Positions 5,677 through 27,309 of a stretch of DNA of 64,000 bases are shown piece by piece. The notes under the pieces are model-generated. The model saw nothing but the letters and a program-made list of their open reading frames with translations, had not been told where the DNA came from and did not search any database. This stretch comes from Escherichia phage vB_Eco_slurp01. Location of the stretch: the sequence record LT603033. The stretch is one strand, 5' to 3'. Made by a program: the position numbers and the translations under genes. The number at the start of each line of letters is the position of its first letter. Position 1 is the first letter of the stretch.

Positions 5677-5868
5677 ATGTTGATTTATCAAAGTGATAAT
5701 ATTCGTGTTATGCAGCATCCCTACTTACAAATCTTTGATGTGCAGCAGTATATGGAAGGTGATGACCCAAGAACCTATGGTCGTAAGTATGATTACTTCA
5801 CTGTAAAGCAGTGTAAAAATATTAACGAAGTACGACAATTAGTTCAAGAACTTCAAAACAAAGGTTGA
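5677..5868 (+). CDS. hypothetical protein
   Basis: ATG at 5677 with AAGGA; stop TGA lies inside the downstream hairpin/-35. Confidence 0.5.
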   Translation: MLIYQSDNIRVMQHPYLQIFDVQQYMEGDDPRTYGRKYDYFTVKQCKNINEVRQLVQELQNKG

Positions 5869-5922: not shown

Positions 5923-6363
5923 ATGTATGTATATCGTTTTGAACTTAAATTTAGTTACATTGAACCTAACTTAGATCCTGCACGAACTGTAGGTCCGTTT
6001 GCACGGTATTCAACCAGATACAGTACTAAAAATGGATTTGACCGTTTGCTTATGACTACACCTTCTCAATTCCAACCTGAACCAACTGAGGATGGGATCT
6101 ATTCAATCAAAAGTGGATGGGTATTTGGCTGTCAAAGTTTGAAAGATTTGTTCAGATTCTTCACTATGGACTTGGGTAAATTGCATCGTGCTGGGTTTGC
6201 TATATCTGTATATGAAGTTCCAGACCACCATGTAGACATTGGTCGTAATCAGGTTCAGTACTATTGCGGTAGTGCTAAATTAGTTCGTATCATGTCAGTT
6301 AAGGAAGCAAAGGATGAGTTCCGACAAAGTAAAAGAGAAACACATGAGGTAATATATGGATAA
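5923..6363 (+). CDS. hypothetical protein
   Basis: RBS AGAGGA; 146 aa. Confidence 0.65.
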   Translation: MYVYRFELKFSYIEPNLDPARTVGPFARYSTRYSTKNGFDRLLMTTPSQFQPEPTEDGIYSIKSGWVFGCQSLKDLFRFFTMDLGKLHRAGFAISVYEVPDHHVDIGRNQVQYYCGSAKLVRIMSVKEAKDEFRQSKRETHEVIYG

Positions 6364-11989: not shown

Positions 11990-12021
11990 GGGTTGACTTC
12001 GGTCAGCCTTTTTTGTTATGA
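11990..12021 (+). promoter_or_regulatory. stem-loop/promoter hybrid (PeSL-like)
   Basis: GGGTTGACTTCGGTCAGCC + T-run + TATGAT. Confidence 0.55.
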
Positions 12022-12050: not shown

Positions 12051-12692
12051 ATGACTAAGCAAGAAATATTCAAAACTTTAATTGACATTTTGCGTCCATC
12101 AAAAACTCGTTGTGCGATGGAGTTTGATATTCCTTATGCTGAACGCGTAATCTTTCCACAAGTTAAAGCTGCTGGACTTACTTTGCTTGGAATGGGGATG
12201 TACTCTGTAGTAGTTGAACATAAAAACTATCCTGGACGAGCATTTAAAGTAACCACTTCACGCTGGGATGGTTTTCGTGCTTATGCAAAGTACTGCATTG
12301 AAAACGCAGGAACCAAGTTTCTTCCAGTGATCTACAGTGCCAACGAACAAGGAAACTTTGGATGGTATGAGATGGACAAGTACTATCCTATAATTAAACA
12401 AAAAAATAATTATGATGACTTTGTTAGTACTAAAATTGGAGATTTATATTCTTATGCACATGCTGGTCAGTACGCTACTTCAGTGAATGATATGCGTGGA
12501 AATTCTGAAGAGATTGCTATTGCGACGGTCGCTGCTAACATCATGAAAGAGTTTCACGGGCGTTTTGTACCAGACATTCATTCAAGTAATGTAATGATGG
12601 ATAAAGATGGGAATGTATTCATTACTGATCCTCTTTCGTGTGATGTGCGTAGAGAAATACCAATTACTGAAGAAGATCCAGTTTTTTATTGA
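12051..12692 (+). CDS. kinase-like fold protein (candidate atypical protein kinase)
   Basis: RBS AGAGGA; Gly-rich segment then K, and HGRFVPDIHSSNVMMDKDGNVFITDP resembling a kinase catalytic loop. Confidence 0.5.
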   Translation: MTKQEIFKTLIDILRPSKTRCAMEFDIPYAERVIFPQVKAAGLTLLGMGMYSVVVEHKNYPGRAFKVTTSRWDGFRAYAKYCIENAGTKFLPVIYSANEQGNFGWYEMDKYYPIIKQKNNYDDFVSTKIGDLYSYAHAGQYATSVNDMRGNSEEIAIATVAANIMKEFHGRFVPDIHSSNVMMDKDGNVFITDPLSCDVRREIPITEEDPVFY

Positions 12693-16468: not shown

Positions 16469-16562
16469 ATGGATTAAACAATGAAGAAGTGTATGATTCT
16501 TTGTTCTAATCACCATCGCATGGTACATTCTGGTAGACTATGTTTGATTGAAAGAAAAAAAA

Positions 16563-16595
16563 AGGGTTGACTTCAGTCGGCCCTTTTTGCTATAA
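16563..16595 (+). promoter_or_regulatory. stem-loop/promoter hybrid (PeSL-like)
   Basis: GGGTTGACTTCAGTCGGCCC + TTTTT + TATAAT. Confidence 0.6.
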
Positions 16596-16624
16596 TCATT
16601 TCATCGAAACGAGAGGATGAATAC

Positions 16625-17059
16625 ATGACACGCATTAACTTAGTACACGTTAAAGAACTTGCTGACCAACATCTGATGGCTGAATATCGTGAACTCCCAC
16701 GTGTATTTGGTGCTGTACAAAAACACGTTCAAGCACGTAAGCGTGTACGTGATTTCAAAATTAACAGTACTTATCTGTTAGGTTCAGGTCATGTAACATT
16801 TTTCTACGACAAGTTACTGTACTTACAGAAGCGTCATATTGATATTGTCAACGAATGTCTGCGTCGTGGTATGAAGATTCAAAACACTGAAGTAAACGAC
16901 ATTAGCGGCTTCCCTGCTGAGTTTTGTAATGACTACATACCAACGGAGTCAGAGATTAAAATGTCTCGTGAACGTTTGATTGAGAAGCTCCAGATGAAGC
17001 CTACGTGGTATAAATTTACTGATGTTGAGTTACCTGAGTATTATCGTTCTATGATCTAA
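16625..17059 (+). CDS. denV: endonuclease V (pyrimidine-dimer DNA glycosylase/AP lyase)
   Basis: N-terminal MTRINL...[21 protein letters not shown] and ...[10 protein letters not shown]...PTWYK are near-identical to T4 endonuclease V as I recall it; RBS GAGAGGA. Confidence 0.9.
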
Positions 17060-17122
17060 AAAAAACATTAACACCAGTTTTATCTTTCAGTATCATGTAA
17101 CAAAGAAAATGAGGAATACAAC

Positions 17123-17482
17123 ATGGCATCTTTAAGTGAAATCGCAGAATACAACCCACTAACAATCTCAACAATTCAACGTACAAAAACTTTTTATTTC
17201 CGTCCTGCTGATGGATGGAAACGTGGAATGAATGGTGACTATCGAGTACTGGAAGATTCGCTCATCGAGCGTATCAACTCTGAACTACAGAAGTATGAAG
17301 GTGTTAAAGTTGTGCGTTCAACTTCTCGTTATTTTGAGTACTACATTGAGTCTTCAACTGTAAATGAAAACTCATCATTCTCGGTGGACAACACTGATAT
17401 TCTTCGTAATGCAGTTGGTTTGCTATGCAACATTGCAGAAGAAATGGGATTAACTATCGCCACAATGAGTGAGTTAGAATAA
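17123..17482 (+). CDS. hypothetical protein
   Basis: RBS GAGGAA; 119 aa. Confidence 0.65.
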   Translation: MASLSEIAEYNPLTISTIQRTKTFYFRPADGWKRGMNGDYRVLEDSLIERINSELQKYEGVKVVRSTSRYFEYYIESSTVNENSSFSVDNTDILRNAVGLLCNIAEEMGLTIATMSELE

Positions 17483-17488
17483 CATAAA

Positions 17489-17521
17489 GGGTTGACTTCG
17501 GTCAGCCCTTTTTGCTATAAT
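17489..17521 (+). promoter_or_regulatory. stem-loop/promoter hybrid (PeSL-like)
   Basis: GGGTTGACTTCGGTCAGCCC + TTTTT + TATAAT. Confidence 0.6.
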
Positions 17522-17547
17522 TATTTTATCGAAACGAGAGGTAATAC

Positions 17548-17787
17548 ATGAAACTATCTTTTATACGTTTAGCAGAATTCTTCGGTACTGATATAATTAC
17601 ATTACAACAAATTGCAGACAATACTTCATTAAGTACACAAGAAGTACTTGACTTGGATGTAATTAAGTGTGATAATACTTCCATCGATTACAAAGAAGGT
17701 CTTGTCGAAAAAGATAAGATTCAGGCTAAGATTAATGGTGCTGGACGGGTTCAGTACTGGAAAGGAGTTTTAAGTAATGCCAGCTAA
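17548..17787 (+). CDS. hypothetical protein
   Basis: RBS GAGAGG; 79 aa. Confidence 0.6.
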   Translation: MKLSFIRLAEFFGTDIITLQQIADNTSLSTQEVLDLDVIKCDNTSIDYKEGLVEKDKIQAKINGAGRVQYWKGVLSNAS

Positions 17788-19663
17788 ATTAACCCCTAAA
17801 CAAGCAAAAGAAAAATTCAACAATAAAGTATTAGAACATAACGTTCCAATTGAAGCTGATTATAGTAAGTATGAAAATGCCAAATTAAAAAACATCCAAG
17901 TAGTTTGCAATGATGTATTAAAACACAAATCAGGCATATCACAAGTATATCTTATGGATCACGCAAACCTCACACACCCATCTAAAAAATTTGGTTGTCC
18001 TGAATGTGAAGACTGGTATAATGGTCATGCTAAAAGTTTAGATATTTTAATTGTTAGGGAAAGAATTAATTCTTGGATTAGTACTTATGGTGGCATAATT
18101 GATACAGTTAGTGGTGAAGTTGAAGTTTATAAAAATAATTCAACAAAAATACCATATATTTGTAAAAATGGAACTAAAAAAACGCTTACTATTTCTACAC
18201 TGGGTGATGAAATCGGTTGTAATTGTTCTAAATGTAAATCTGAATTAATATCAGAAATCGAAGATAACAATGAATATACATCCATGACTACTGATGATGA
18301 TTGTGTTACAATTTCCCATTTTATATTTGGGGATGATGTTGCATTCTCGTGGATTTCACCATTGGAAATGAAAAAACATGGTTACGGTCTTGCCGAAAAA
18401 ATGAAAGAAAAAGCATTGTCGGTTGGTAAAAATATTATTGGATATGCAATATCATCTCTTAGTGAATGGAAAAATGAAAAAACTCCTGTAATAACGGAAC
18501 ACGAAGGAGTATTATATCGTATTTCCAGAGCATCATATTTGATCAATAATAATATAGTACATAGACCACATTATACAAAAAATAATTTTTTATATTATTT
18601 TTACAAATGTTCACCTAACAATCAACTTATTACACCAATCCTAATACCTGATGATGTTGGTACAAAAAAGAAAATTAAAGTATGTTATAAATCATGTGGG
18701 TGTGAATACGATATATCTGTGGACGTTATAATGAACAGAAATTTAAAAACTTGTGGAAACTGTAAAAATATAGATACTAAAACATTTATAGAAAAGTGCT
18801 TGGAGTTCAAATCAAGTGGAGAATATATCTATGATAGAGTAAACTATATAAATCAAAGTACACCTGTAACTATAGTTCATAAAATTTACGGAGAATTCAA
18901 AAGTACACCACAAAATCACTTAACACATTTAAAAAACAGTTTGAAATATGATACAGCTAACTTTAAAATAAAAAATCTAACTCAATTTAAAATTAAAGCA
19001 AATGAAGTTCATAATAACTTATATAATTATGATAAAGTTGATTATGTAAATTCTTCAACGAAAGTATTAATAACTCATCCAGTGTATGGAGACTTTTGGC
19101 AAACTCCAAATGGGCATTTGGCAGGTAAAGGACACCCGAAAGTCAAAGGTGGTGTTCCTTATACATGTGATGAATTTAAAATTAAAGCAAATGAAGTTCA
19201 TAATAACTTATATAATTATGATAAAGTTGATTATGTAAATTCTTCAACGAAAGTATTAATAACTCATCCAGTGTATGGAGACTTTTGGCAAACTCCAGCA
19301 AGTCACCTTTGTGGGTCTGGTCATCCACTTGCGGCTGGTCATTCTCAGCAATATGCATATATTCATAATATTTTGGATGGTGATTTATCTGTAGCATTGA
19401 AATATGGTATTGAAAAGCAGAAAGGTAAGAGGGTTATGCAGCAAAATAAAAAATCATTATTTAAAATTGAATCGTTACATACGTATTTTTTCACATCTGT
19501 GTTTGAGTGTAAGGAAGCTGAAAAAGAATGTAAAAAACTATTTGGTAAAGGCGTTTTAACTAAACAAGAAATGCCAGATGGTTATACTGAAACTACTACA
19601 CCAAACAACATAGATAAAATTATTGCAATCTATGAAAAATGGGGTGGGGTGAAAAAAAACTAA
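17777..19663 (+). CDS. Cys-rich repeat protein (628 aa), possible nuclease/homing-endonuclease-like
   Basis: RBS AAAGGAG; several CxxC/CxC clusters; at least three copies of a roughly 40-aa motif Y-x-YDKVDY-V-N-S-S-T-x-V-x-I-x-H-P-V-Y-G-x-F; function unverified. Confidence 0.65.
   Translation: MPAKLTPKQAKEKFNNKVLEHNVPIEADYSKYENAKLKNIQVVCNDVLKHKSGISQVYLMDHANLTHPSKKFGCPECEDWYNGHAKSLDILIVRERINSWISTYGGIIDTVSGEVEVYKNNSTKIPYICKNGTKKTLTISTLGDEIGCNCSKCKSELISEIEDNNEYTSMTTDDDCVTISHFIFGDDVAFSWISPLEMKKHGYGLAEKMKEKALSVGKNIIGYAISSLSEWKNEKTPVITEHEGVLYRISRASYLINNNIVHRPHYTKNNFLYYFYKCSPNNQLITPILIPDDVGTKKKIKVCYKSCGCEYDISVDVIMNRNLKTCGNCKNIDTKTFIEKCLEFKSSGEYIYDRVNYINQSTPVTIVHKIYGEFKSTPQNHLTHLKNSLKYDTANFKIKNLTQFKIKANEVHNNLYNYDKVDYVNSSTKVLITHPVYGDFWQTPNGHLAGKGHPKVKGGVPYTCDEFKIKANEVHNNLYNYDKVDYVNSSTKVLITHPVYGDFWQTPASHLCGSGHPLAAGHSQQYAYIHNILDGDLSVALKYGIEKQKGKRVMQQNKKSLFKIESLHTYFFTSVFECKEAEKECKKLFGKGVLTKQEMPDGYTETTTPNNIDKIIAIYEKWGGVKKN
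18974..19300 (+). repeat. perfect intragenic direct duplication (about 130 bp x2, separated by about 60 bp)
   Basis: AATTTAAAATTAAAGCAAATGAAGTTCATAATAAC...GGAGACTTTTGGCAAACTCCA occurs twice identically. Confidence 0.85.
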
Positions 19664-19730: not shown

Positions 19731-20501
19731 ATGACCAGAGAAGCACGTAGCATTCAAATCCAGAAAAACTTCAACTCCATGATGGTTGCTCTTGAGTGTT
19801 TGCTCGATGATAGCAGTACTGTAAAAAGTATGGTTGTCAGTGGTGCTCCTGGTGTTGGTAAGACTTACACCCTGTCTAAACGCCTCCAGAAAGCTCATGA
19901 CGCAGCAGAATGGAACGTAGCTACCATCAGTGGTAAAATGACTACTCTGGCTCTGTACGAAGTTCTGTACAAGAATCGTCATAGCACCAACGTATTAGTA
20001 CTGGATGATATGGACAGCATCTTTGATTCAGAAGACGGTATGAACCTGCTCAAAGCAGTACTGGACAGCGGTAAACGTACTGTGTCTTACATGACTAGCT
20101 CTAAGTACTTAACCACTAACGGTATCCCTAACAGCTTTGATTTTAACGGTCGTATCGTATTCATCACTAACAAAGATTTAGCATTAGATGCTAAAGCTAA
20201 AACGAAAATGTCTGCTCACTATGCTGCTCTTATGTCTCGTTCTGTATACGTTGACTTACAGATTCAGACCAAAAGCGATATCATGATTCACATTGAGAAC
20301 GTGATGAATCAGACTAACATTTTAGAATCTAAGGGTATTAACCGTAATGGTAGTAAAGCAATTCTGAACTGGATGTTGAAGCACGAAGATTCTCTTCGTT
20401 CACCTTCACTGCGTATGCCACTGTTGATTTCGGCAGTATATAACAACAACCCATACGATTGGGAAGAGCAGTGCGAAAACTTGTTCCTTGAGAAAATTTA
20501 A
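19731..20501 (+). CDS. P-loop NTPase (AAA-like ATPase)
   Basis: Walker A GAPGVGKT and Walker B-like VLVLDDMD; RBS GAGGA. Confidence 0.7.
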   Translation: MTREARSIQIQKNFNSMMVALECLLDDSSTVKSMVVSGAPGVGKTYTLSKRLQKAHDAAEWNVATISGKMTTLALYEVLYKNRHSTNVLVLDDMDSIFDSEDGMNLLKAVLDSGKRTVSYMTSSKYLTTNGIPNSFDFNGRIVFITNKDLALDAKAKTKMSAHYAALMSRSVYVDLQIQTKSDIMIHIENVMNQTNILESKGINRNGSKAILNWMLKHEDSLRSPSLRMPLLISAVYNNNPYDWEEQCENLFLEKI

Positions 20502-23047: not shown

Positions 23048-23710
23048 ATGATGAAAACAAAATTAGGTTTGTTTTATAAAAATTATTTCGTTAAACAGCG
23101 TAAATTTATAAAAAAATATTTCTCTGGTGAGAAGTCTAGTCCTATAATTTTTAAAAGACCAAGTTATAATACTTACTTAGCTGATGCTAAACAGTCTAAG
23201 AAATTTATTACTCTTTTAAATAAAAACAAAATTAAAGCTTCTTATGTTGAAACGAGAAGAAACTCATCAATAACTCCTGGTGATTTTATTGAGTACGGAT
23301 GTTTCAATATTAAGTATAATGATAATACATACTTTATGGATATTGATTGTAATACATCCAATCTTTTTAACATTGTAGTAAATCCATTAAAACAATATAA
23401 TGTTTATGGTGATTCTATTATCAAATTAATCAAAAACAAAGATGGCTTTGATTTTGAAATAAATGTTTTAGATGATAATTTTGACGAAGTACCCGTAAAC
23501 CCTGAAATCTGTGATATTTTAAACAGTTTAAAAGGTAGTACCTACAATATATCATCTGATTTAATGTTTCAGTACTCATTAATCCATAAAGATATTGAAA
23601 AGTATATTGAATGTTCCAAAATTTTGAATTATCTTTACGATGAATTTAAAAAGAGTTCTAAAATAACCGCATACACTTTGTACAATATTCCTAAAATGGT
23701 GAATCTTTGA
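23048..23710 (+). CDS. hypothetical protein (K/N-rich, very AT-rich)
   Basis: RBS AAGGAG; 220 aa; converges with minus-strand array. Confidence 0.6.
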   Translation: MMKTKLGLFYKNYFVKQRKFIKKYFSGEKSSPIIFKRPSYNTYLADAKQSKKFITLLNKNKIKASYVETRRNSSITPGDFIEYGCFNIKYNDNTYFMDIDCNTSNLFNIVVNPLKQYNVYGDSIIKLIKNKDGFDFEINVLDDNFDEVPVNPEICDILNSLKGSTYNISSDLMFQYSLIHKDIEKYIECSKILNYLYDEFKKSSKITAYTLYNIPKMVNL

Positions 23711-24843
23711 CAAATACAGTACTGGCAACTCCACCGTCTGTAATATATTGTCCAGTACTGTAAATTTGTATACCATCGGTTAAGTAAGTTCTGTATAAAG
23801 TTGCTGTAACATATACGTTATTCATATTCATCTCTATTGGTAGTACACATTTGGTATAGGCCGACACATCTGTTTGTGTACCTATACCCAATTGACCTGC
23901 GTTATCGCCTGTGTTATAACCAGTTGCGTAAACACCTAATGAAGTTATAATATGATTAGAAAAATATGAATAACCCACACTGCTTCTTATTATATCACCT
24001 GGTGCTTGTGTTGTTTGTCTTAACGAAATATATGTTTGTGATGTAGAACCATTTGCTAACTGACCAAAGTATTGTCCACCACCATGATATGCAAATAATT
24101 TATTAGTACTATTATTACTTGCTATAGCAAAAGCGAAGTAACTTGAGTTTGTTGTATAATCTTTCACCGTATAGGTATTAGTTATTTGAGAACATAACGT
24201 GTACTTTGAATATAACGTCATGTCGGTTGTACCTACGCCTGATATTGCACCAGTATAATACAATCTCCCATCGGTTCCAATAAATCCTTGCATAAGAAAA
24301 TTTGCCAGTATTTTGGATGGTGTTACTCCAGTAGGTACTGTTCCTTGTACAAATGATGAAAGTGAATCGGTACTTCTACCATTTCCCAGTTGTCCATAAC
24401 TACCATAACCCGTATTCCATATCGTGTTGTCTGTACATAATACGCTTAATGCACCTGCACTAACTGCAATTTGTTTTATTGTTTTTCCAAGTGCTGTTAT
24501 TCTATCAAACACTATCTTTGCAGAAGCCCACGTTGTTGACTTATCAGTTGATAAACCGAATGATGCACCATTTCCAGCATACCACATCGTATTATCTTTC
24601 TTTTTAATTAATGTTGACTCATACCCGAACCCATAGATCTTCTACGTTTGTATTGCACAAAACCCATTTGGTTTGTGTTATAATATTACCTATACCCATT
24701 TGCCCAAACTCTTGAGAGCCTCTACTGTACAACGTACCATCTGACATAAGGGCAAAAACTGTTGTATCAGATGAAGCTATTTTTGTTACAGAAGGTTGTA
24801 TGTTCTTTTTTGATGATGTGATAATTCTTCCAAAGGGTAGCAT
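23691..24843 (-). pseudogene. RCC1-like repeat protein paralog 1, frameshifted
   Basis: N-terminal fragment (24619..24843, MLPFGRIITSSKK...) and C-terminal fragment (23691..24587) in different frames; divergent N-terminal tag. Confidence 0.55.
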
Positions 24844-24915
24844 TGTATCCTCCAAATGTAAATCGTTATTATATTTAGGACAAAAAAATGCCAGTACAAG
24901 GCACTGGCATAAAAT
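24844..24915 (-). promoter_or_regulatory. inter-paralog cassette (hairpin + RBS)
   Basis: TGCCAGT-ACAAGGC-ACTGGCA hairpin upstream of paralog 1. Confidence 0.45.
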
Positions 24916-26085
24916 CTAAGCAGAAGGCATATCCTTCATTTTAATAAATGAAAATTGTGTACCAGTATTTGTGGTTTGATCAGTAAAATATGAATTACTA
25001 CCAGCCCAGTACAATTCATTATTAACTATACAATATATAACAGAACTCGAACTCTGTGAATACACACGACTTATATTTGATGGTTCCACTCCAGTACTGA
25101 ACTGAACCGAACCCAACTGTGAACTTGGTATCACATCAGTTGGTCTACCTAAACCATTAACACCAGCCCCACCACCACATGTATATACCCCAGTACTATC
25201 AGTTGATATATTAACATAACCATTCCCGGCATTTTCAAATAGTATTTCACTGGGAACAACACCAAATCCTGTAAGATCTATTTTCCTGAATGTAGTGTAA
25301 ACAGTAGAACCACCAACACCTCTTCCACCATAATCATTAGAACCAGCCATATAGATACTATATCCAGAACTTCCTAAACATAATAACTGTACGTTGTCAT
25401 ATAATATTTGCATAGATATAACGTTATCAGGAATACTCAATACCGTAAAAGTAGTTAAAGAAGAACTTCCAATATTACTACCAACCGATGTTCCACATCT
25501 GTAGTACTTACCGCCTTTTATATAATGGAACGATGAACCGCCTAACTTATGTGCTCCTATTGCACTTACCCCAGTATCTATAAGAATGGGAGATACAACT
25601 TTGTTATTAACACCTAACTCAGATCTACTGTTCATACCGAACCCATATAAACGACCATCTAACATCAATATTAGTGTACTACCGGAAGTACCCGCTGACG
25701 TAAATTCTATATTCTTTATTTGCGACACGTCAATACCTACAAATAATGAAGTTACTTCAGTCCAGTTAACATATGAACCACTAGCCCCAAAATATCCACC
25801 CATGTATAGACCTGCACAATATAACTTATTATCAACAGTCTTTATTAATGTACCGGATACACACGCCCAAAAATCATCAACTTCATAGGGTACATGTACC
25901 CAACCACCTAATACATCACTAGCATCCCCTGTACCTAATTTATAGTTCGAACCAGAACCACGCATGTACATATTCCCTGTACTATAAAGTAATCCGACAT
26001 GTAATTGACTACCATCCAATTTCTTTATTTCAGGAAGAGTTGGTTTAATATTTCCGTACTTTAACATTCTTCCAAAAGGTAACAT
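24916..26085 (-). CDS. RCC1-like repeat (beta-propeller) protein paralog 2
   Basis: 389 aa; N-terminus MLPFGRMLKYGNIKP; G/S/T/N/Y-rich repeats; RBS AAGGAGG. Confidence 0.8.
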   Translation of the reverse strand: MLPFGRMLKYGNIKPTLPEIKKLDGSQLHVGLLYSTGNMYMRGSGSNYKLGTGDASDVLGGWVHVPYEVDDFWACVSGTLIKTVDNKLYCAGLYMGGYFGASGSYVNWTEVTSLFVGIDVSQIKNIEFTSAGTSGSTLILMLDGRLYGFGMNSRSELGVNNKVVSPILIDTGVSAIGAHKLGGSSFHYIKGGKYYRCGTSVGSNIGSSSLTTFTVLSIPDNVISMQILYDNVQLLCLGSSGYSIYMAGSNDYGGRGVGGSTVYTTFRKIDLTGFGVVPSEILFENAGNGYVNISTDSTGVYTCGGGAGVNGLGRPTDVIPSSQLGSVQFSTGVEPSNISRVYSQSSSSVIYCIVNNELYWAGSNSYFTDQTTNTGTQFSFIKMKDMPSA

Positions 26086-26095
26086 ATTCCCTCCT

Positions 26096-27238
26096 TTATA
26101 TTATATTTAATTTTTGATATGTGGGATATATTTCTTGACTTGGTTTATCTAAAATATATTGTACGTTACCTGCACCATATAAACTACCATCAATAGTAGC
26201 TAATTTAACATTAGTATCACCAGCCACCCACGATGTCATTTTTGATGCACCTGGAACTAAAGTTGTATTTTTTACGCTGGTGGAAACGGAATTTACCCCC
26301 AAACTACTACTTAAGTTATATCCACTACTATAAACTTCACCATTAATTCTAAATTTAACGTATACTGGTAAGTTAACAGCATTACCATAGTTGTAGTTTG
26401 TATGCTTTATAAAACGAAACTCTGAACTTACATATGTTTCCGGTTGAGCTACACTGTATATATTGTATGACTGAAAGGTACTACCAGCCGCAGAATTTAA
26501 TAATCCAGTGTCCCCAGTATAGCCACTAAAATAAACTGAAGTAGCATCACTCCACATAAAACAAGATGTTGCAGTTAAATAAAAATCAATCACATTTGAC
26601 TTAACTACTCTTGGTGTCAGGTAACCAGTACCGCCCACAGTTGTGAAGCAGTTGAATCTGTTCTCACCCCACGCAACAACGTCGCCATTCGATCTTATTC
26701 CACATGCGTTCAGATGACCAAATTGCATTTTAGAAACACCAGTAAGGTTTGTATTTTGTGTCCATGTAGGGGCGTATGTTGTAGTACTTGCTAACCCAAT
26801 CATACCATATAAATTAGAACCTAAAACCCAAACTGAACCATCGGCGTTTACAATAACAGTTGCATGATCACGTGCAACATATATTTCGCTCGCATTGTCA
26901 AATTTGTCTTTGATTAAACTATCAATGTTAATAAAAACATTACCACTATCTCCATATGCATATGCTGCTCCACTAAACCAATATGAACTATCATTTTTTA
27001 AAATAGTTAATCCAGACTGACTAAACCAAAAATTAACCACATTTTCGGCTATTAATGTACGTACTGTAAGTGTTGTTCTATTTCCTAATCCAAATTGACC
27101 TGCTGATTGAGTCCCACTTGCATATAATTTACCATCACTTGTAAGTATTATACAACCATTTATTGTTAAATCTACTTTTTTTATATCAAGTGGGATTATC
27201 ATATTCCCGTACTGAATCATTCTTGCAAAAGGTAACAT
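26096..27238 (-). CDS. RCC1-like repeat protein paralog 3
   Basis: 380 aa; N-terminus MLPFARMIQYGN; GQFGLGN-type repeat motifs. Confidence 0.8.
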   Translation of the reverse strand: MLPFARMIQYGNMIIPLDIKKVDLTINGCIILTSDGKLYASGTQSAGQFGLGNRTTLTVRTLIAENVVNFWFSQSGLTILKNDSSYWFSGAAYAYGDSGNVFINIDSLIKDKFDNASEIYVARDHATVIVNADGSVWVLGSNLYGMIGLASTTTYAPTWTQNTNLTGVSKMQFGHLNACGIRSNGDVVAWGENRFNCFTTVGGTGYLTPRVVKSNVIDFYLTATSCFMWSDATSVYFSGYTGDTGLLNSAAGSTFQSYNIYSVAQPETYVSSEFRFIKHTNYNYGNAVNLPVYVKFRINGEVYSSGYNLSSSLGVNSVSTSVKNTTLVPGASKMTSWVAGDTNVKLATIDGSLYGAGNVQYILDKPSQEIYPTYQKLNII

Positions 27239-27309
27239 AATTCCCTCCTTTATTCATTATACTATATTTAATACAAATAAGAAAGCCAGTACTCTGTACT
27301 GGCATAATG
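27239..27309 (-). promoter_or_regulatory. conserved cassette: hairpin terminator + TATAAT + RBS
   Basis: On gene strand: GCCAGTAC-AGAG-TACTGGC, TTTCTTATTTGTATTAAATATAGTATAATGAATAAAGGAGG, then ATG. Confidence 0.55.

Follow-up and report, generated by a model that had tools for sequence, protein, structure and literature searches.

The open reading frame denV encodes a 144-residue protein in the window, as we call the whole 64,000-nucleotide stretch of phage DNA analysed here. Judged from its sequence, we put the probability at about 93% that it is a functional orthologue of T4 endonuclease V, expressed early, in an Asteriusvirus-type jumbo coliphage close to phAPEC6. The preliminary description of this DNA had taken the gene as an anchor marking the window as part of a T-even-like phage. 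By comparison of the whole window, that reading is already refuted, and this correction is our main result: a call based on denV would mislabel the early region of a 350-kb jumbo phage as T-even. No genome can be placed in a phage family on the strength of one well-conserved accessory gene like denV. The presence of denV is itself already known, as DenV homologs had been annotated before in RaK2, CBB, 121Q and phAPEC6. RaK2 gp291 is listed as an endonuclease V homolog (PMC3622015) and CBB_519 as endonuclease V (PMC5259590). The positions of denV and of the elements discussed below are collected in Table 1.

Table 1. Positions in the window of denV, its flanking elements and the two repeated promoter-like classes.
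Feature	Position	Strand	Remarks
Terminator-like half of the composite cassette upstream of denV	16560-16588	+	Hairpin and T-tract
Parts of the hairpin upstream of denV	A-tract 16560-16563; stem 16564-16571 / 16576-16583; loop 16572-16575; T5 16584-16588		Loop TTCA
Sigma-70-type promoter-like site upstream of denV	16567-16596	+	11/12 consensus match, with TG
Parts of the denV promoter-like site	-35 16567-16572; extended -10 16588-16590; -10 16591-16596		-35 TTGACT, in the hairpin; 18-nt spacer; extended -10 TGc; -10 TATAAT
Shine-Dalgarno sequence of denV	16611-16617	+	GAGAGGA; read from the sequence; kept in the cassette alignment
denV	16625-17059	+	ATG start, 144 aa; pyrimidine-dimer DNA glycosylase / AP lyase (endonuclease V), by homology
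C-terminal tail, residues 132-144	17018-17056	+	Specific to the jumbo-phage clade; takes the place of T4 YGKAIYA
Weaker promoter-like site before the downstream ORF	17068-17096	+	TTAACA-17-TATCAT; 10/12 consensus match
Downstream 119-aa ORF	17123-17482	+	phAPEC6 gp021c; PHROG 32140; no assigned function
Next composite terminator-promoter cassette	17482-17524	+	Hairpin 17489-17508; -35 17492-17497; -10 17516-17521
Cassette copies	5855, 9100, 9287, 10901, 11983, 16557, 17482, 19663, 53591, 57199, 60466, 62735	+	
Hairpin-free promoter-like class	4092, 14719, 54156, 54738, 56473, 57782, 58052, 60913 and others	+	Mostly at 54-63 kb

The relationship of the window to known phages was assessed at the level of DNA, protein and gene content. 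A megablast search with 14 kb around denV found Escherichia phage vB_EcoM_phAPEC6 (MK817115) at 99.0% identity and 96% query coverage; this record has 352,598 bp and belongs to the genus Asteriusvirus, and its lineage does not include Straboviridae. The denV DNA was identical at 435 of 435 nt to gp022c of phAPEC6 (QDF13653.1; 100% at the protein level), which is annotated in MK817115 as 'endonuclease V; N-glycosylase UV repair enzyme'. The best 40 protein matches all came from records of RaK2-like phages, of which almost every one is a complete genome (320-386 kb). The 245 ORFs of the window that encode 50 aa or more were compared with the entire T4 genome by tblastn, and three found a match: denV itself (66%), a motB.2-like ORF at 5923-6363 (+; 39% over 54 aa, PHROG 1106) and an nrdC.10-like ORF at 19731-20501 (+; 38% over 239 aa, PHROG 1250 and signals of an AAA/P-loop NTPase). 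The neighbours of denV are hypothetical ORFs specific to jumbo phages and without a T4 match, and a Pfam search with the ORFs flanking denV returned no match.

The reading frame and its 144-aa product were confirmed as the preliminary description had given them, the encoded peptide agreeing with the strings quoted there, and no in-frame start codon was found 5' of the ATG at 16625. The GAGG of the Shine-Dalgarno sequence lies 8 nt from this ATG. The product had also been named a T4-type endonuclease V, and every test agreed with that name. BLASTP against T4 DenV (NP_049733, with the denV sequence for comparison taken from the T4 genome record) gave 86 identical residues of 131 (66%), 80% positives, no gaps and an E value of 6e-67; neither an identity below 30% nor a loss of catalytic residues was seen. 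The protein matched Pfam PF03013 (Pyr_excise; 55.4 bits, with the cutoff at 23, E 8e-15), PHROG 1183 ('endonuclease V N-glycosylase UV repair enzyme', E 3e-59) and, by phmmer, PDB entry 2END (E 6e-55), with residues 1-131 aligning with residues 1-131. Matches in the PDB sequence search were confined to T4 endonuclease V entries (2END, 1ENI/J/K, 2FCC and 1VAS, E ~1e-54).

In endonuclease V the Schiff base forms at the alpha-amine of the N-terminal Thr, and the catalytic acid/base is Glu22 of the processed protein, or Glu23 in gene numbering (PMC3285167). Both residues are kept here, as had been noted for the N-terminal Thr and the Glu in AEYRELP: the N-terminus reads MTRINL, E23 lies within AEYRELPR, and T2 and E23 are each invariant in 121/121 homologs. 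The residues invariant in the alignment of 121 homologs and present in this protein further comprise M1, R3, I4, N5, L6, Q15, H16, E20, R22, L24, P25, R26, G55, H56, F59, F60, Y61, R117 and Y129, and K121, also present, is kept in 118 of the 121. The basic cluster of Arg3, Arg22, Arg26, Arg117 and Lys121 is thereby complete (5/5), with four of its members invariant. Work by Doi in 1992, Morikawa in 1992 and Vassylyev in 1995 is said to have assigned DNA-binding or catalytic roles to these five residues in T4. The WYKY segment of T4 DenV has a DNA-binding role; residues 128-131 read WYKF in our protein, and position 131 is occupied by Y, F, H or W across the family.

The structure was modelled with AlphaFold2 from an alignment of 48 sequences, with a mean pLDDT of 93.2. 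Compared with 2END by Foldseek, the model gave TM-scores of 0.90/0.94 and an rmsd of 1.2 Å over 133 columns, and the protein is thus predicted to adopt the all-alpha, single-domain fold known from T4 endonuclease V. A Foldseek search of the PDB gave no significant matches to folds other than the T4 endonuclease V entries. Selection on the gene was estimated by the Nei-Gojobori method over codons 1-131, and dN/dS was 0.08 against 121Q, 0.10 against SD-2_S15 and 0.07 against RaK2. Ratios of 0.07-0.10 indicate that denV is under strong purifying selection and is no decaying remnant. Taken together, the residues, the predicted fold and the substitution pattern suggest that the enzyme is almost certainly functional as DenV.

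From homology we infer both a cyclobutane pyrimidine dimer (CPD) glycosylase/AP-lyase activity and the substrate on which it would act. The initiator Met would be taken off, leaving a free alpha-amino group on Thr2, and this amine would attack C1' of the 5' pyrimidine in a cis-syn cyclobutane pyrimidine dimer to give a Schiff-base intermediate. Glu23 would carry out the proton transfers, and beta-elimination would nick the strand 3' of the abasic site. Repair would then be completed by base-excision repair enzymes of the host or the phage, with better survival of UV-damaged phage DNA as the expected outcome.

The protein departs from T4 DenV at its end. T4 DenV has 138 residues and the protein described here 144; Tyr131 of T4 is Phe, and no relation is seen between its final 13 residues and the last seven of T4, YGKAIYA. 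The C-terminus of T4 DenV is important in dimer binding, and since the tail differs here, affinity or specificity could differ as well. The tail is a shared feature of the jumbo clade, as its motif T.V.LP.YY..M[IL] is conserved in the homologs of RaK2, CBB, CMSTMSU and others, including those on 350-380-kb contigs. Residues 138-143 were modelled by AlphaFold2 as a short helix (block-mean pLDDT 87-93).

Among near-identical phages, positions 17018-17123 of the window, at the 3' end of denV, are a hotspot of variation. 121Q carries 355 bp more than the window, beginning inside the 3' end of denV, and this insert comprises a longer tail, a half-cassette (GGGTTGACTTCGGTTAC, without the -10) and a small extra gene. 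In 121Q and its group, DenV has 171 aa with an acidic tail, as opposed to 144 aa here, and is followed by that small gene, which in 121Q is gene 218 (64 aa). In SD-2_S15, denV is fused in frame with the downstream ORF, whereas the two are separate here; a deletion joins DenV residue 136 to the 119-aa ORF to give a putative 242-aa protein, for which an assembly artefact is possible. At the position equivalent to the weaker promoter-like site between the two genes, 121Q has TTGACA-17-TATTAT.

We considered three other accounts of the gene, two of which concern its origin. A window belonging to a T-even-like (Tevenvirinae/Straboviridae) genome, with DenV as its mark, is suggested by T4 being the phage from which DenV is most familiar. 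Of 1100 matching phage records, about 620 fall at 60-80% identity, those listed being all T4-like and of ~155-175 kb, and RaK2-like phages hold distant homologs of some T4 core genes (PMC3622015, PMC5259590). However, this placement is extremely improbable for DNA that shares 99% identity with a 352.6-kb Asteriusvirus outside Straboviridae and that matches T4 in just 3 of 245 ORFs. The T4 neighbourhood ipII - denV - vs.8 is likewise not reproduced, neither ipII nor vs.8 being found beside denV in the window. Homologs of DenV are also found in phages of Ackermannviridae size, in Pseudomonas siphoviruses, in Roseobacter phages and elsewhere, and with occurrences in so many unrelated phage groups the gene is no valid taxonomic anchor and is not diagnostic of T-even phages. 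A more restricted proposal is that denV alone was gained recently by horizontal transfer from a T-even phage and is for that reason more T4-like than the rest of the window. Its 66% identity is indeed an outlier beside the 38-39% of the other two T4 matches, and its region is plastic and flanked by cassettes. Yet in a neighbour-joining tree of 121 homologs, a single unbootstrapped tree whose topology is indicative only, the 144-aa DenVs of jumbo phages (Asteriusvirus, RaK2, CBB and 350-380-kb contigs) formed one clade that adjoins a mostly metagenomic group of ~140-149 aa, and the two together were sister to the 138-aa T4-like clade, with the jumbo clade not nested within it. We judged a recent transfer unlikely on this ground. 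The identity to the DenV of CBB (67%) is, moreover, no higher than that to T4 DenV, and dS against T4 denV is saturated. The near-equal identities to CBB and T4 indicate that the likeness to T4 reflects slow evolution of a small, constrained enzyme and not recent transfer.

The third account concerns function, and holds that this DenV homolog has lost or changed its activity, acting as an AP lyase only, as a glycosylase for another lesion or as a DNA-binding regulator. The C-terminal tail and the change at residue 131 do depart from T4, and close relatives tolerate big C-terminal changes, as in the 171-aa protein of 121Q and the 242-aa fusion of SD-2_S15. Against this, all of the family-invariant residues are kept, the core superposes on 2END at 1.2 Å, purifying selection is strong across codons 1-131, and position 131 is free to vary within the family. 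A change of activity is in our view very unlikely, and we retain the reading of an active endonuclease V.

Upstream of denV lies the sequence AAAAAAAAGGGTTGACTTCAGTCGGCCCTTTTTGCTATAAT, a composite element with an 8-bp GC-rich stem lengthened by A/T pairs, a 4-nt loop and a T5 run, in which the -35 hexamer falls within the stem and loop. A profile search found 12 copies of this cassette in the window, all on the plus strand. The consensus, written as RNA, is A4-GGGTTGAC-UUCG-GUCAGCCC-U5, overlapping a TTGACT/18/TGnTATAAT promoter; as DNA it reads A4-GGGTTGAC-TTCG-GTCAGCCC-T5-G-YTATAAT. The element before denV recurs at 5862, 11990, 17489 and 19670 with up to three mismatches (five sites in total, 0-3 mismatches), and none would be expected by chance. 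Its hairpin had a predicted folding energy of -17.5 kcal/mol (z -4.4), and the folds of the cassette copies ranged from -14 to -19 kcal/mol (z -4.3 to -6.7). Across 14 copies, namely the 12 of the window with those of RaK2 and ValKK3, 95% of cells paired and three pairs carried compensatory changes. The pairing score was reached by none of 500 shuffles and also exceeded all slid controls. In seven copies the distance from the end of the element to a start codon with an AGAGGA-type Shine-Dalgarno sequence is 12-24 nt, and at 57-63 kb there is a variant subclass, GGGATTGACTCCGGTCAGTCCC...TATTAT, with compensatory changes in the stem.

The promoter, the terminator and the early timing are read from consensus matches only. 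In the 4-kb region analysed, 18 promoter-like sites were counted and 19.6 were expected from shuffles; with no excess of such sites, only the repeated, conserved cassette stands above chance, and lone matches do not. A second promoter-like class in the window has no hairpin and follows the pattern TTGACA-N(10-11)-AGTACTGTATAAT, with a conserved AGTACTG just before the -10. The exact AGTACTGTATAAT core was present in eight copies, in addition to near-matches, and this class could represent early promoters of a separate kind, or a binding site that overlaps the extended -10.

The preliminary description had placed denV between hairpin/promoter elements. The upstream element is real, but the next one is reached only past the 119-aa ORF, and the statement holds for the pair of denV and that ORF. 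From the arrangement of these elements we infer promoter and terminator function and the timing of expression. Transcripts arriving from upstream would end at the T-tract at 16584-16588, and a new transcript would begin a few nucleotides past 16596. With a near-consensus sigma-70 promoter, denV would probably be transcribed soon after infection by unmodified host RNA polymerase. No terminator-like site was found between denV and the 119-aa ORF, where there is only the weaker promoter-like site; the two genes are therefore probably co-transcribed, in a short transcript that would end at the next cassette (17489). It is plausible that denV is an early gene with its own promoter, in a two-gene unit rather than strictly on its own; the preliminary description had it as an independently expressed early/middle gene. 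The denV homolog of CBB (CBB_519) lies in a predicted early region rich in RpoD-like promoters (PMC5259590). Elsewhere in the window, the cassette at 11990 is immediately followed by an ORF (12051-12692, +) that, by the annotation of phAPEC6 gp031c, encodes a protein kinase resembling T7 gp0.7, and its position fits an early region devoted to host takeover.

Cassette and denV were kept together in 121Q, SD-2_S15, CMSTMSU and RaK2. In RaK2 the ORFs that flank denV in the window are absent within 1.5 kb and the flanks are unrelated; in CMSTMSU the flanks also differ. For a possible association of cassettes with indels there is one example at denV, the 355-bp insertion of 121Q with its half-cassette.

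Two genes downstream of denV lies a 628-aa ORF (17777-19663, +) annotated in MK817115 as 'exonuclease ABC C subunit'. We considered whether denV and this ORF form a UV-repair cluster and rejected the idea: the ORF had no Pfam match, and its only PHROG matches were to PHROG 681 ('endonuclease') and PHROG 559 ('HNH endonuclease'). It probably encodes a free-standing endonuclease of the homing type, and the annotation looks unreliable. The ORF contains an exact internal tandem duplication of ~40 aa (FKIKANEVHNNLYNYDKVDYVNSSTKVLITHPVYGDFWQTP), and fragments of a related gene lie right after denV in CMSTMSU. Further along, 13 paralogous ORFs are arrayed in tandem at 23691-39443 on the minus strand; one has 298 aa and the others 358-433 aa. 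Four of these ORFs were searched and gave weak matches to RCC1-like beta-propellers (Pfam PF25390, PF00415, PF13540), and one compared pair was 27% identical. This array, with the ORFs at 24619-24855 (78 aa) and 23691-24587 (298 aa), is the sole sizeable minus-strand block in a window that is otherwise plus-strand.

The distribution of the cassette extends well beyond this phage. One 53-nt copy matched 85 phage records by megablast. Among the matches were RaK2-like phages of Escherichia, Klebsiella, Salmonella, Erwinia, Serratia and Pectobacterium, as well as Aeromonas phage 65.2 and 29 Vibrio phage records. Of the Vibrio records, those listed were ~240-255 kb long and included ValKK3. Identity was 92-97% in the KVP40-like vibriophages, and the 20-nt hairpin core of ValKK3 (Schizotequatrovirus) is identical to that of the window. 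An element of ~50 nt at 92-97% identity is found in RaK2-like phages (Asteriusvirus, Alcyoneusvirus and the CBB/Erwinia/Serratia group), in KVP40-like Schizotequatrovirus and in T4-type phages of Aeromonas; no copy was found in the full T4 genome. Within the window, all three of the T4-homologous ORFs lie directly behind a cassette copy, the motB.2-like and nrdC.10-like ORFs starting 24 nt after theirs, as denV does. A post-hoc hypergeometric calculation (~7 positions, roughly 85-130 genes) put the chance of this at ~1e-4 to 1e-3, and the association of T4 homologs with cassettes is suggestive only.

These elements may be true cassettes of the PeSL (promoter-early stem-loop) type outside the T4-like phages, that is, portable modules for recombination and expression that move accessory genes, although we hold this idea only tentatively and consider it doubtful. 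If it is true, such cassettes would move genes like denV within, and perhaps between, distantly related phage families. The cassette brackets denV, marks the indel at its 3' end and is near-identical in jumbo and KVP40-like phages, and it could matter for the shuffling of hyperplastic regions and for early transcription in jumbo phages. We looked for a PeSL-denV module held in common with KVP40-like phages and rejected it. The denV of ValKK3 (37% identity) overlaps the upstream ORF and has no cassette before it, and there is thus no evidence of a cassette-denV unit moving between families. Our literature search found nothing on PeSLs in jumbo phages, and neither promoters nor terminators are treated in the papers on phAPEC6 and RaK2. 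The occurrence of a PeSL-type cassette in jumbo phages is only a mildly new point and a modest lead.

Among the known systems closest to the protein is T4 endonuclease V, also called DenV or T4-PDG (NP_049733; 2END, 1VAS, 2FCC). The two have in common the MTRINL start, Thr2, Glu23, R3/R22/R26/R117/K121 and W128-Y129-K130. The promoter contexts differ, as T4 denV has a plain early-type promoter-like sequence, GTTTAC...TACTAT, and no hairpin, whereas here a hairpin-fused promoter-like site precedes the gene in a 350-kb genome. The DenVs of RaK2-like phages are also close, with identities by tblastn of 95% to 121Q (gp217) and 81% to RaK2 (gp291/denV); for CBB (CBB_519) the value is a BLASTP identity to the cluster that bears the name of that phage. 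These proteins and ours have the C-terminal motif of the clade in common.

For the cassette, the closest known system is the PeSL of T4-like phages, which consists of an AT-rich tract, a sigma-70 promoter and an overlapping stem-loop terminator, followed by a Shine-Dalgarno sequence and start codon (Arbiol 2010, PMC2839356). In nt-1/KVP40-type PeSLs the stem has the form 'A3-4G3-loop-C3T3-4' (Comeau 2014, PMC4122927), and the cassette stem fits this type. All elements of the PeSL definition were found in the cassette: the tract, the -35/-10, the overlapping stable stem-loop, the Shine-Dalgarno sequence and start, and intergenic repetition. PeSLs are also, as here, intergenic repeats in a plastic region of small ORFs. 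They have been described only in T4-like myoviruses, whereas the present cassette, with predicted promoter and terminator roles, occurs in RaK2-like jumbo phages. Degraded PeSLs have been reported near indels (PMC4122927), and the half-cassette in the insert of 121Q looks similar.
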